64,000 nucleotides of DNA from Methanomassiliicoccales archaeon (lineage in GTDB: Archaea; Thermoplasmatota; Thermoplasmata; RBG-16-68-12; SOIM01), in assembly GCA_004377185.1 (NCBI GenBank), contig SOIM01000059.1, forward strand, positions 10,999-74,998. The letters run 5' to 3'. The notes beneath the pieces are model-generated. The model did not search any database. It was not told the origin of the DNA and was given only the letters and a program-made list of their open reading frames with translations. This document shows, piece by piece, positions 31,701 through 34,210 of this stretch. Position 1 is the first letter of the stretch, and the number at the start of each line of letters is the position of its first letter. A program made the position numbers and the translations under genes.

Positions 31701-31708
31701 TTTATAGA
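31701..31708 (+). promoter_or_regulatory. TATA-box-like element of the Ufm1-like operon
   Basis: TTTATAGA is centred about 34 nt upstream of the ATG at 31738, implying a very short leader. The alternative ATG at 31720 is too close to this box to lie within the transcript. Confidence 0.4.
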
Positions 31709-31737
31709 TAGCATTCTCTATGATACACGGGATTGAT

Positions 31738-31983
31738 ATGGCGCAAGTCACGTTGAGGTTCATATTCATCAGTGACGCGGACCGTCCGACTGTATCGCTA
31801 AAGGTTCCGGAGGACATGCTTTTTCAGGAAGCTCTTGTGATGGCAGCCAAGAAACAGGGGAAGGATTCCAGCATCGTGACCGCGACCTTTCCCGGCGGGT
31901 CCCCCATCGAGGGCGGGACGGTCAAGGAAGTGGCCGACAAGAGTCCGAACATACACGTGATCGATCCTTCTGTCGTCGGATGA
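31738..31983 (+). CDS. UFM1-like ubiquitin-fold modifier (81 aa, C-terminal Gly directly followed by the stop)
   Basis: MAQVTLRFIFISDADRPTVSLKVPEDMLFQEALVMAAKKQGKDSSIVTATFPGGSPIEGGTVKEVADKSPNIHVIDPSVVG*. From memory, human UFM1 is [40 protein letters not shown]...LRIIPRDRVG(SC). Shared features are the same length class, the SD...P...L.VPE...F...L..AA core and the terminal VG. It is the first gene of an E2/E1/JAB operon. Confidence 0.75.
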   Translation: MAQVTLRFIFISDADRPTVSLKVPEDMLFQEALVMAAKKQGKDSSIVTATFPGGSPIEGGTVKEVADKSPNIHVIDPSVVG

Positions 31984-31990
31984 GATACAG

Positions 31991-32458
31991 ATGCGAACTG
32001 AGGATGACCTGTTCTACTTTCTTCAGTGTGCAACAGTCGCTTCGCCCAGGGACGACGATTGGCTGTTCAGGGTGAAGGAAGAGAAGTATGCGTTGGAGAA
32101 GTTCAGCGAGTATCTGAGATTCCTGGAAGGGAACGAGTGGTTCACCCTCGGTCCCATAGATGAGAGAGCCACGCGCTGGAAGGGCGTGGTAAATGGGTGG
32201 GGGTATGAATTCGACATGGAGATGGTCCTGAAGGACGCGTATCCGACCACACCACCTGCAGTCCGAATACCTGAACTGATGAAGTACACCGACAGAAAGC
32301 TGGATGACAGCGTTCTCGGGCTGAGAATATGCGACATGCACATGGAACAGAACTTCTGGTGGGATGAACATTCGGGCATCGCCCTGTACCTGAAGAGGGA
32401 GGTCTCCTATTGGGTCCAGAGCGTGATTGAGTCCATGAAGGAGAAGGGCTGGATATGA
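31991..32458 (+). CDS. UFC1-like E2 (Ufm1-conjugating enzyme homologue)
   Basis: SPRDDDWLFRVKEEKYALEKF, RWKG..., YEFDMEMVLKDAYPTTPPAVRIPEL and GLRICDMHMEQNFWW. Remembered human UFC1 has [52 protein letters not shown] and GGKICLTDHFKPLW. The putative catalytic Cys114 is the codon TGC at 32330-32332. Confidence 0.8.
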   Translation: MRTEDDLFYFLQCATVASPRDDDWLFRVKEEKYALEKFSEYLRFLEGNEWFTLGPIDERATRWKGVVNGWGYEFDMEMVLKDAYPTTPPAVRIPELMKYTDRKLDDSVLGLRICDMHMEQNFWWDEHSGIALYLKREVSYWVQSVIESMKEKGWI

Positions 32459-33207
32459 CGGAAAGGTATGCTCGCCTCGGGCAATTCGAGTTCGCAGATT
32501 TCTCCAAGCTCAGGGACAAGAAGGCGATGGTCGTAGGCGTAGGAGGACTGGGAGCTCTCACAGCGGAGATCATGGCCAGAGTCGGGATAGGAGAGCTTGT
32601 GTTGATGGATTATGACAAACTGGAAGAGGCGAATCTGAATCGGTTGATATACAATGTTGACCAGGTCGGCATGCCCAAGGTGGACGCCCTCAAAGAGCAC
32701 TTGTTCAAGGCCAATCCAGATGTGAAGATCACAACCTATCCGTATGACATAACGGACGGAGAAGGTTACGACGCGTTCCTCAACGAGATAGCGAAATGCG
32801 ACATCATCTTTGGGTGTGTGGATACCTTTCAGGTAAGATTGTTCATCAACTCCCAGGCGGTCAAATCAAGGAAGACACTCGTCGATGGAGGAGCGTCGAA
32901 TGATGGCATCAACGGAAGCGTTCATGTCGTAATACCCGGGGAGACGGCATGCTACCGATGCAACAGACCTCTGGCAAGAGAGGAGAAAGCACAGACGCAC
33001 AGGAGCGATGGTTCGGGCCTTTGTCATTTTGCCTCCCTCCCCACGACAATGGCGATAATCTCCAGTCTGCAGTGCCAGGAAGGTCTGAAGTACCTCCTGG
33101 GATTCGGAGAGGTGGCCTCATATCTGATGTACTACGGTCTGGAAGGAAAGATGGAAAGGTACGATTGGAAAAGGGACCCGGACTGCCCCGTTTGCGGGAA
33201 GGTTTAG
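32455..33207 (+). CDS. UBA5-like E1 (ThiF/MoeB-fold adenylating enzyme, minimal 250-aa form)
   Basis: [80 protein letters not shown] and DCPVC. Remembered UBA5 has [63 protein letters not shown] and GVCAASLPTTMGVVAG. The putative catalytic Cys190 is the codon at 33022-33024. Two CxxC pairs form a Zn site. There is an ATGA overlap with the E2 gene. Confidence 0.85.
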   Translation: [250 protein letters not shown]

Positions 33208-33208
33208 C

Positions 33209-34210
33209 ATGAATGATTCCATTCTGATTCGTGAAGGCGCGATCGACTCCCTGCTGAGCCATGCTCTCAGGTCGGCAAAGGCTCACGGCAAAGAGGTCAT
33301 AGGCTGGCTGATGGGGTTCTTTCAGAAGGAAGGGGTATGCGTATCCGAGTCCGTTCCATGCACCAAATACAGATTCCAATCCCGGTTCGGGGCGGAAGCG
33401 GATCCGACCCAGGAGGCGGAAATCGCCAGTTTGTATCCAAGGAATGTTGGGATTGTGGGATTGTATCACTCTCATCCTTTTGCAATGAGATTGGAAGGGG
33501 GCCATTTCCGACGGATATCCAGCTTGGACGACATCTTTCACAGCAGTACGGACGACAGCATGCTCAGGGCCAGGTCCAGCAGAAGGAAGAACTACCTCTC
33601 CATCGTCACGAACGGGATCGACTACTCGTGCTATGTCATGAAGAAGGGCTCAAAAGAGATTGAACCCGCTTTGGTCGGAGAGATCCCCTACAAGAATTCC
33701 CTTCAATCCTACCACAGCAACTTCAGCATTCACTTGGAGGAGGAAATGGAGAACGTTGAGCTCAAGGACGCGATAAGGAAGATTAGCTGGGAGCTGATGG
33801 ACCGCGCCAAGAAAGACCTCAAGCAAGAGGGTCTGTCAATAGAGAAGGGGACGTTCAACAGGCATCGTTTCAGATCCAGACAAAAGAGTACGGAAATCAC
33901 TCCAGAGAACATGTTGAGTTTCGACAAAGGGAACGATTCCATCAAAGGCGAGGCACACATATCCCTCTCACCGGTCGTGTACACTGCCTTGGAGGACGAG
34001 AAGGAAATCAACATAGCCATGAAGGAAGAGATCTTGGATAACATCGCCTATCTCTTGTGGAAGCTCTCCCTTTCCAAGACGCCCGCAATGCGGAGGAGAT
34101 GGAGCAGGGTCGAAATCCACCTGGGCAACGTTGAGATTGACGAATCCGAGTCCCTTCCCAAGAAAAGGTTCCAAACACCGGAAAGAGAGATCACAATCAA
34201 ACGCTCATAG
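33209..34210 (+). CDS. JAB/MPN+ (JAMM) metalloprotease with a C-terminal extension of about 180 aa
   Basis: Glu in KEVIGWLMG, and HSHP at 33467-33478 (GLYHSHPF), followed by SSLDD / HSSTDD as candidate S..D elements. It starts 1 nt after the E1 stop. Confidence 0.8.
   Translation: MNDSILIREGAIDSLLSHALRSAKAHGKEVIGWLMGFFQKEGVCVSESVPCTKYRFQSRFGAEADPTQEAEIASLYPRNVGIVGLYHSHPFAMRLEGGHFRRISSLDDIFHSSTDDSMLRARSSRRKNYLSIVTNGIDYSCYVMKKGSKEIEPALVGEIPYKNSLQSYHSNFSIHLEEEMENVELKDAIRKISWELMDRAKKDLKQEGLSIEKGTFNRHRFRSRQKSTEITPENMLSFDKGNDSIKGEAHISLSPVVYTALEDEKEINIAMKEEILDNIAYLLWKLSLSKTPAMRRRWSRVEIHLGNVEIDESESLPKKRFQTPEREITIKRS

Follow-up and report, generated by a model that had tools for sequence, protein, structure and literature searches.

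A four-gene UFM1-type conjugation cassette predicted in a Thermoplasmata archaeon

Is the conjugation machinery of UFM1 confined to eukaryotes? UFMylation is treated as eukaryote-specific, acts on ribosomes docked at the endoplasmic reticulum (ER), where the target of UFM1 is uL24 (RPL26), and is linked to human disease. The question is raised by four adjoining genes on contig SOIM01000059.1 of a Methanomassiliicoccales archaeon (GenBank assembly GCA_004377185.1), within the 64,000 nucleotides analyzed here (positions 10,999 to 74,998 of the forward strand; hereafter the window). The proteins of this cassette carry the label “hypothetical” in public records. A reading made from the letters alone, without database searches (the sequence-only reading), had proposed that the genes form an operon for a ubiquitin-like modifier (Ubl), its conjugating enzyme (E2), its activating enzyme (E1) and a JAMM protease, the first three being of UFM1, UFC1 and UBA5 type. 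We consider it likely, from the sequence comparisons below, that the cassette is a chromosomal, vertically inherited four-gene operon encoding a minimal UFM1-type conjugation system. On our best explanation, both the UFM1/UBA5/UFC1 core of eukaryotes and a wider Asgard gene cluster are homologous to this system. Its host belongs to the Thermoplasmata and not to the Asgard archaea.

The cassette and the element ahead of it are laid out as follows (genes from the open reading frame (ORF) list and the window sequence; aa, amino acids; nt, nucleotides):

31701-31708, plus strand: TATA-like box TTTATAGA, read from the sequence, 30 nt ahead of the Ubl ATG (31738)
31738-31983, plus strand: Ubl gene, 81 aa
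31991-32458, plus strand: E2 gene, 155 aa
32455-33207, plus strand: E1 gene, 250 aa
33209-34210, plus strand: JAMM gene, 333 aa

The Ubl and E2 genes are separated by 7 nt (31984-31990), the E2 and E1 genes share an ATGA overlap (32455-32458), and one nucleotide (33208) lies between the E1 and JAMM genes; the operon layout of the sequence-only reading is thus confirmed in its coordinates and spacings. The overlap suggests coupled translation and a stoichiometric E2/E1 pair. We infer that TTTATAGA acts as the promoter of the cassette, and in most related loci a TATA-like element lies 30-37 nt 5′ of the homologous start codon. A scan of the window for sigma-70 promoters and terminators, with models not relevant to archaea, stayed at chance level. 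A second in-frame ATG at 31720, 5′ of the Ubl start, would yield an 87 aa protein; it is not kept in relatives, and the 81 aa form is therefore the real product.

Conservation of the gene order in related genomes, which the sequence-only reading had named as a check, was found in a profile scan for the E2 that covered one genome per prokaryotic species. The E2 occurs in 31 species, all of them Thermoplasmata/Thermoplasmatota metagenome-assembled genomes (MAGs), and the order Ubl-E2-E1-JAMM is kept wherever the contig permits. Because the same four genes co-occur in the same order in 31 species-level genomes, the cassette is far beyond chance. The nearest relative genome is the MAG CP070767.1 (94% E2 identity), and identity within the Thermoplasmata clade falls to 47% for the E1 and 29% for the JAMM protein; the Ubl is conserved more strongly than any other cassette protein. 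The apparent JAMM gap in locus L027 is explained by a masked run of N at that place, and the cassette of L037 (5474-6673) is truly without a Ubl gene 5′ of the E2. An exhaustive hidden Markov model search of 1.84 billion representative proteins returned only 42 E2 relatives at E<=0.001, which fall into three groups: Thermoplasmata, Asgard/Korarchaeota and eukaryotic UFC1.

By its sequence the window E2 belongs to the UFC1 family, as the sequence-only reading had claimed. It matches Pfam UFC1 (PF08694) at 54.3 bits (cut-off 25; profile positions 11-153 of 155), against 15.8 bits for the generic model UQ_con and 15.7 bits for Prok-E2_B, and 35 of its 37 relatives also match Pfam UFC1. The significant PDB sequence matches are UFC1 chains only (E about 1e-9), and identity to human UFC1 is 31% across 148 aa. 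When a profile of the 37 relatives is aligned to a eukaryotic UFC1 profile with hhalign, the match spans 143 columns at 32% identity, with Prob 98.9 and E 2e-17. Both the HMMER and the hhalign alignments place E2 Cys114 on the catalytic Cys116 of human UFC1. This cysteine is invariant in two alignments (37 and 31 sequences), within the invariant motif GLRICDMHME. The E2 also has an invariant T100-D101-R102-K103 and lacks the HPN motif of canonical E2s, and its N-terminus is strongly conserved (D6, L7, F8, F10, C13 and T15 are invariant). The peptides on which the sequence-only reading had drawn are all present in the translations, with E2 Cys114 and E1 Cys190 where it had put them. The eukaryotic motifs that it had quoted are also right: those of UBA5 and UFC1 can be read in the alignments to PDB chains, and the full human UFM1 equals PDB 8ohd_D residue for residue.

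Among characterized E1 and E1-like enzymes, the window E1 is by sequence nearest UBA5, again as proposed. In a phmmer search of the PDB it scores 170 bits against UBA5, compared with 100 for MoeB, 90 for ThiF, 82 for MccB and 48 for BubCD, and it shares 37% identity with the adenylation domain of human UBA5. The ATP motif is conserved (GxGGxG, residues 28-33). Cys190, also conserved, adjoins ASLPTTM and aligns with human UBA5 Cys250. The zinc cysteines 166, 169, 244 and 247 do not vary among the Thermoplasmata, Asgard and human proteins. The E1 pattern used to scan genomes was too general and outside the cassette genomes returned mostly ordinary bacterial ThiF/MoeB proteins, which served as a negative control: the closest non-cassette relatives among 185,579 species genomes are bacterial and about 35% identical, and the one tested (L088) shows the reversed preference, with ThiF at 193 bits and UBA5 at 90. 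Phylogeny was another check named in the sequence-only reading. A rough neighbor-joining (NJ) tree with a single eukaryotic E1 splits bacterial ThiF/MoeB from a group of cassette E1s, Asgard cluster E1s and human UBA5 in 200/200 bootstraps; for the E2 the distances are saturated and the tree is likewise NJ only.

The modeled Ubl appears to carry the UFM1-specific variant of the beta-grasp fold. In a Foldseek search of the PDB with its AlphaFold2 (AF2) model (predicted local distance difference test, pLDDT, 90.3), the best 13 matches are all UFM1, with template modeling (TM) scores of 0.82-0.87 and root mean square deviations (rmsd) of 1.2-1.6 A, against TM 0.57-0.71 and rmsd 2.5-3.4 A for SUMO/ubiquitin. 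Profile-profile alignment points the same way: hhalign gives P 4.6e-5 for the Ubl profile against human UFM1 and P 0.009-0.26 for the controls (ubiquitin, NEDD8, SUMO1, ThiS and MoaD). Pfam Ufm1 (PF03671) is the commonest match among the Ubl relatives (9/28), at a sub-threshold best E of 0.0069. The UFM1-type claim for the modifier accordingly stands on its fold and profile alignment and falls short at the Pfam threshold.

The Ubl ends in VIDPSVVG, immediately followed by the stop codon, and all relatives end in PS[VI]VG. From the sequence we predict a conjugation-competent C-terminus with a single Gly after Val. The stop lies right behind the Gly in 22/29 species; in the other 7/29 the Ubl continues past it with a tail (SC, FR, FQ, T, SR and two longer ones), which would need to be removed. 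In L027 (4644-4907, CP070739.1) the last Ubl residues are VVGSC; human pro-UFM1 loses this very Ser-Cys tail by cleavage.

A terminal Gly is also found in sulfur carriers, and a MoaD/ThiS-MoeB/ThiF system, or a dual SAMP/UbaA-like one, would use the Ubl in thiocarboxylated form for cofactor synthesis or tRNA thiolation and would not conjugate it. The E1 is a member of the ThiF family (Pfam ThiF, 176 bits) and matches the NCBIfam MoeB, ThiF and UbaA models at 110-122 bits, and a ThiD-ThiN gene lies 8 kb from the cassette. Those NCBIfam scores are far under the cut-offs, however (122 versus 266; UbaA, 111 versus 450), the E1 prefers UBA5, and there is no rhodanese domain. The Ubl ends in Val-Gly and not Gly-Gly, no MoaD or ThiS structure is among its top 50 Foldseek matches, and hhalign gives only P 0.13-0.21 against ThiS and MoaD (MoaD, P 0.13). 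In 31 species the Ubl is accompanied by a JAMM protease and by a dedicated E2 whose catalytic Cys is invariant. We give a sulfur-carrier role hardly any weight. Sampylation (SAMP1-3, UbaA and HvJAMM1) resembles the cassette in that archaea conjugate a Ubl by means of a MoeB-like E1, with a JAMM protein for deconjugation. It has no E2 and its SAMPs are MoaD-like with Gly-Gly ends, whereas the cassette has a dedicated E2 and a Val-Gly end; together with the UbaA score and the desampylase score given below, the sequences argue against SAMP/UbaA membership.

The fourth protein belongs by sequence to the MPN+/JAMM metalloprotease family, which agrees with the sequence-only reading. The JAMM motif (E29, H87-S-H89, S112-x-x-D115) is intact and invariant in 42 and in 26 homologues, and Pfam JAB matches at 24.4 bits (cut-off 22.5). 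NCBIfam desampylase is the sole NCBIfam match, at 26.8 bits against a cut-off of 130. An N-terminal MPN domain (about residues 1-150) is followed by a conserved C-terminal domain of ~180 aa. Foldseek matches of the AF2 model (pLDDT 81.8) span the MPN domain only and include Rpn11, the Caldiarchaeum Rpn11 homologue and PfJAMM1; the best match among archaeal structures is the Caldiarchaeum homologue (TM 0.76 on target). The C-terminal ~180 aa have no Pfam match when searched alone and no PDB counterpart in the Foldseek search with the whole model.

The sequence-only reading had named a lack of preference for UFM1, UFC1 and UBA5 over generic families as grounds for giving up its proposal; the corresponding searches were run, and the preference was there. 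It had also stated that only scattered components of the pathway had been noted in Asgard archaea; these archaea in fact carry a whole related gene cluster. Distant JAMM homologues led to a Hodarchaeales-like contig (L009, 3156-6915) with the genes Ubl-E2-X-E1-JAMM, and in a further scan 31 loci turned up with an E2 of the Asgard type. The named lineages are Heimdall-, Loki-, Hermod-, Odin-, Sigyn- and Hodarchaeota, and one locus is labeled Patescibacteria. The Asgard cluster loci are L009 and, in Asgard MAGs, L039-L064; L043 is from the cultured Lokiarchaeum ossiferum (CP104013.1). The Asgard Ubl ends in IIDRGIVG; hhalign gives P 2.8e-5 for it against human UFM1 and P 8e-7 for the Thermoplasmata Ubl against the Asgard Ufm1-like proteins. 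The Asgard E1 prefers UBA5 as well (171 bits versus 100).

The Asgard cluster has the same four families as the cassette, its E1 is 40% identical, and its E2 reads ICHDHME where the window E2 has ICDMHME. It differs in its usual gene order, X-E1-JAMM-Ubl-E2, and in the added gene X, whose product (X361) is a protein of ~360 aa with a C-terminal zinc ribbon and no Pfam family; X361 is a candidate E3 (ligase) or adaptor. The Asgard E2 has an insertion of ~20 aa ahead of the catalytic Cys and is weaker against Pfam UFC1 (best E 1e-7, versus 2.5e-15 here), and the Asgard E1 has a C-terminal tail of ~35 aa that the window E1 lacks. Several Asgard species encode the Ubl as an in-frame fusion with the E2 (~270 aa, with RGIVG at the end of the Ubl part; loci L044, L049, L051, L057, L059, L061 and L064; proteins P0259-P0261, P0263 and P0271). 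Such a fusion implies that the modifier is freed by proteolysis, for which the linked JAMM protease is the presumed enzyme, and it ties the modifier functionally to the E2.

A few UFC1-like proteins lie at the edge of this group. In the Asgard-type P0269, P0278 and P0286, all from the search of representative proteins, the catalytic Cys is replaced by Asp, Ser or Ala, as in inactive E2s of the ubiquitin E2 variant (UEV) kind. P0278 (866 aa) combines SIR2-like and TPR domains with its Cys-less UFC1-like domain, an architecture reminiscent of conflict or defense systems. An Asgard-type UFC1-like E2 is encoded in a Korarchaeota MAG (P0265, MEM2637601.1), and a partial one is on a contig binned as Patescibacteria (L066), possibly mis-binned. 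The UFC1-like E2 family may extend past Asgard and Thermoplasmata archaea.

A second explanation is that the cassette is not an antecedent of UFMylation and that one Thermoplasmata lineage gained it horizontally from an Asgard archaeon or an early eukaryote and later streamlined it. No more than 31 species were found to have the cassette, every one of them in the Thermoplasmata, while the related cluster spans many Asgard lineages. The E1 tree has the form (Thermoplasmata,(Asgard, human)), with Asgard E1s and human UBA5 together in 178/200 bootstraps, which is compatible with a stem-Asgard donor. By Pfam score, hhalign identity and distance, the Asgard E2 stands further from eukaryotic UFC1 than the Thermoplasmata E2 does. 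The Kimura distance of the Thermoplasmata E2 is 1.80 to eukaryotic UFC1 and 2.22 to the Asgard type. A eukaryotic donor is opposed by the operon structure, the putative archaeal promoter, the absence from the E1 of the UBA5 C-terminal tail described below, and a JAMM protease whose extension beyond the MPN domain is partly shared. The divergence inside Thermoplasmata noted above (E1 to 47%, JAMM to 29% identity) is deep, and any transfer would therefore be ancient; the single Korarchaeota E2 homologue hints at spread in further non-Asgard phyla. On balance, we regard such a transfer as rather unlikely. We draw no firm branching order, because the E2 evidence and the E1 tree disagree, the E2 distances are saturated, and support is weak (Asgard E2 monophyly, 38/100 in the NJ tree).

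The composition of the cassette also recalls bacterial systems. The sequence-only reading had allowed for a stress or anti-virus function. A conflict system of the Bil/Bub or CBASS (cyclic oligonucleotide-based antiphage signaling system) Cap2/Cap3 kind would put the Ubl on invader or self proteins upon infection. Like Bil/Bub and CBASS Cap2-Cap3 systems, the cassette combines Ubl, E2, E1 and JAMM without an E3, and its E1 shares with theirs the minimal homodimeric ThiF-like adenylation domain. The E1 matches PADLOC Cap2 “E1-E2” models at up to 100 bits, and fusion of the distant UFC1-like P0278 to SIR2-like/TPR domains is typical of conflict systems. However, the E1 domain is the only part that PADLOC recognizes. 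The Ubl and E2 have no PADLOC match, the JAMM protein reaches just 16 bits, the PADLOC scan as a whole gave nothing specific, and the E1 scores far higher against UBA5 than against any of these models. Bub E1 is without a catalytic Cys (PMC11601596), whereas the window E1 retains Cys190. No E2 relative was found in phage and plasmid collections (tblastn) or in IMG/VR viral contigs (pattern scan). The neighbors of the cassette are housekeeping and surface-protein genes and do not form a defense island. The flanking genes are common only to close relatives and differ in distant ones. The pattern is vertical and not that of a patchy mobile defense system, because the cassette is found in a single archaeal lineage, the Ubl is strongly conserved, and close relatives share the flanks. 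These scans leave the anti-virus suggestion unsupported: models and context do not indicate membership in a known anti-phage Ubl system (CBASS Cap2/Cap3 or Bil/Bub), and we judge this explanation very improbable.

If the cassette encodes a UFM1-type system, as we favor, each step of the following mechanism can be predicted from homology and conserved residues. The 81 aa modifier would be produced already mature, with Gly81 exposed. The UBA5-like E1, a homodimer in relatives, would use ATP to adenylate Gly81 and then bind the modifier through a thioester to Cys190, which lies in the crossover loop beside ASLPTTM. Transthiolation would hand it to Cys114 of the UFC1-family E2, which may pass it to target lysines unaided by any E3 or with the help of a partner whose gene lies elsewhere. 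The JAMM metalloprotease would undo the modification. In related species it may also trim the C-terminal tails of the modifier listed above, and the related Asgard protease would likewise cut the Ubl-E2 fusion precursors.

The cassette has all three core families in common with eukaryotic UFMylation, as well as the UFM1-like fold, the Val-Gly end and, in some archaea, the tails (SC in L027, as in human UFM1). It differs in being operonic and archaeal, and it has a JAMM metalloprotease where eukaryotes have the cysteine proteases UFSP1/2. Eukaryotes use an E3 of UFL1, UFBP1/DDRGK1 and CDK5RAP3, and none is near the cassette: UFL1/DDRGK1/CDK5RAP3 and UFSP are absent from the Pfam-annotated neighbors at 19.4-43.5 kb and from the other large ORFs of the window.

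Several observations weigh against a UFM1-type system. The lack of a UFL1/UFBP1-type E3 within about 10 kb of the cassette is one of them, since human UFC1 alone has negligible lysine reactivity and requires UFL1/UFBP1 (PMC9627666). The E1 is another. It lacks the N-terminal extension of UBA5, and neither its full translation nor its alignment with human UBA5 contains the C-terminal tail with the UFM1-interacting sequence (UIS) and the UFC1-binding sequence (UBS). It consists of the adenylation domain only and ends in CPVCGKV, 3 residues past the last zinc cysteine, and therefore leaves no place for either element; human UBA5 requires the UIS (residues 334-346) for UFM1 activation (PMC5428781). 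In place of Glu38-Glu39, which bind the UIS in UFM1, the window modifier carries Lys38-Lys39, a replacement that is also consistent with a UIS-less E1. In UFC1 a TAK motif replaces the HPN motif of canonical E2s, and its K108 is essential (PMC9627666, PMC12032130). The window E2 may have T-D-R-K in place of T-A-K; hhalign aligns T100-D101-R102(-K103) with T106-A107-K108 of UFC1, whereas the HMMER pairwise alignment has a gap there, so that the equivalence of T100-D101-R102 with this motif depends on the alignment method. Finally, Pfam Ufm1 is the sole Pfam match of the window Ubl and reaches only 12.2 bits (cut-off 27), and neither single-sequence nor profile searches of PDB sequences returned UFM1 for it. 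Because these searches fell short, the Ubl assignment rests on structure and profile-profile evidence.

One further E1 feature was seen in a relative: the L037 protein has an acidic, low-complexity C-terminal extension of ~130 aa that is not present in other Thermoplasmata E1s.

Among archaeal systems, the ubiquitin operon of Caldiarchaeum subterraneum is similar in being a compact operon with Ubl, E1, E2 and a JAMM/Rpn11-like protease. It encodes ubiquitin, a UBA1-like E1, a UBC E2 and a RING E3, whereas the cassette has the UFM1, UBA5 and UFC1 types and no RING protein, and the window protease has an extra C-terminal domain that matches no known family.

Around the cassette, the window is an ordinary archaeal chromosome with genes for archaeosine TGT, AOR, aIF2-gamma, CysRS, tRNA-Ala, aRF1, ThiDN and PAN. 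One neighbor abuts the cassette directly:

34205-34627, minus strand: triple zinc-ribbon (DZR) protein, 140 aa (Pfam DZR, E 5.7e-11), convergent with the cassette

The 3′ end of this gene overlaps the JAMM 3′ end by 6 nt. In 17 related loci, some of them distant and with otherwise different neighbors, a DZR homologue abuts or overlaps the 3′ end of the JAMM gene (the window, L011-L015, L017, L018, L020-L022, L024-L026, L030, L031 and L037). The gene is absent from this position in L010, the closest relative. In L030, L031 and L037 the homologue is 381-445 aa long, with zinc ribbons at the C-terminus, a long helical stretch and, at the N-terminus, a hydrophobic segment that we read as a putative transmembrane helix. 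This placement hints weakly that the DZR protein could be a partner, an adaptor or a substrate for the cassette, or else a mere persistent neighbor. No similarity was detected between it and the extra Asgard protein X361. Behind the zinc-ribbon gene, a small DUF6015 protein with a weak TFIIE-alpha-like match (35010-35363, plus strand) is kept at this place in about 8-10 related loci.

Very large predicted proteins surround the cassette (19453-27435, plus strand; 28271-31429, minus strand; 35615-39148, plus strand; 53339-59503, plus strand; 59500-62898, minus strand). One, of 2660 aa, combines WD40 repeats with a subtilase S8 domain and Ig-like domains; two PKD-repeat proteins measure 1052 and 1177 aa, and others are of the CBM96/Big_9 and BNR/sortilin-like kinds. 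In our reading these may be surface or secreted proteins of a sediment archaeon that degrades proteins or polymers. The PAN gene (48852-49898, minus strand) is about 15 kb downstream of the cassette; its proximity is probably coincidental, yet it would be relevant if the modifier feeds proteolysis. A tRNA-Ala (CGC; 27482-27555, plus strand) is the sole RNA gene detected in the window.

UFM1, UFC1 and UFSP2 have been described as exclusive to eukaryotes, with prokaryotic relatives only for UBA5, UFL1 and DDRGK1 (EMBO J 2023, PMC10183829). A Ufm1 homologue has since been reported from Asgard archaea and said to be absent from every other prokaryote; that report gives only the Ufm1 homologue and not the rest of the cluster (Nat Microbiol 2026, PMC12962969). 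Neither a prokaryotic UFC1 nor this operon turned up in a full-text literature search, which had subscription-only papers outside its reach. A Thermoplasmata operon with a UFM1-like Ubl, a UFC1 E2, a UBA5-like E1 and a protease contradicts both statements, and the Asgard cluster, including that of the cultured Lokiarchaeum ossiferum, reinforces the contradiction.

We therefore classify the cassette with the UFM1 system by its three core families, as a form that differs in E1 architecture, protease, absence of a linked E3, organization and host. The UFMylation core is accordingly present beyond eukaryotes and also beyond Asgard archaea. Tentatively, and with less than even confidence, we suggest that the UFM1-UBA5-UFC1 triad is an archaeal invention older than eukaryotes and wider than Asgard archaea, with the E3-free Thermoplasmata cassette as its most streamlined surviving form. 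If so, the Thermoplasmata E2 would be the prokaryotic protein most similar to eukaryotic UFC1, exceeding the Asgard version, and the UIS/UBS tail, the UFL1-DDRGK1 E3 and the UFSP proteases would be later eukaryotic accretions on a self-sufficient Ubl-E2-E1-JAMM module. The ancestral targets, possibly ribosome or membrane-proximal proteins, would then be findable in archaea, and the cassette opens a route to them. It also offers a minimal four-protein system for biochemistry, in which the action of a UBA5-type E1 without UIS/UBS and the discharge of a UFC1-type E2 without UFL1/UFBP1 may be studied. The origin of UFMylation becomes a testable phylogenetic question.

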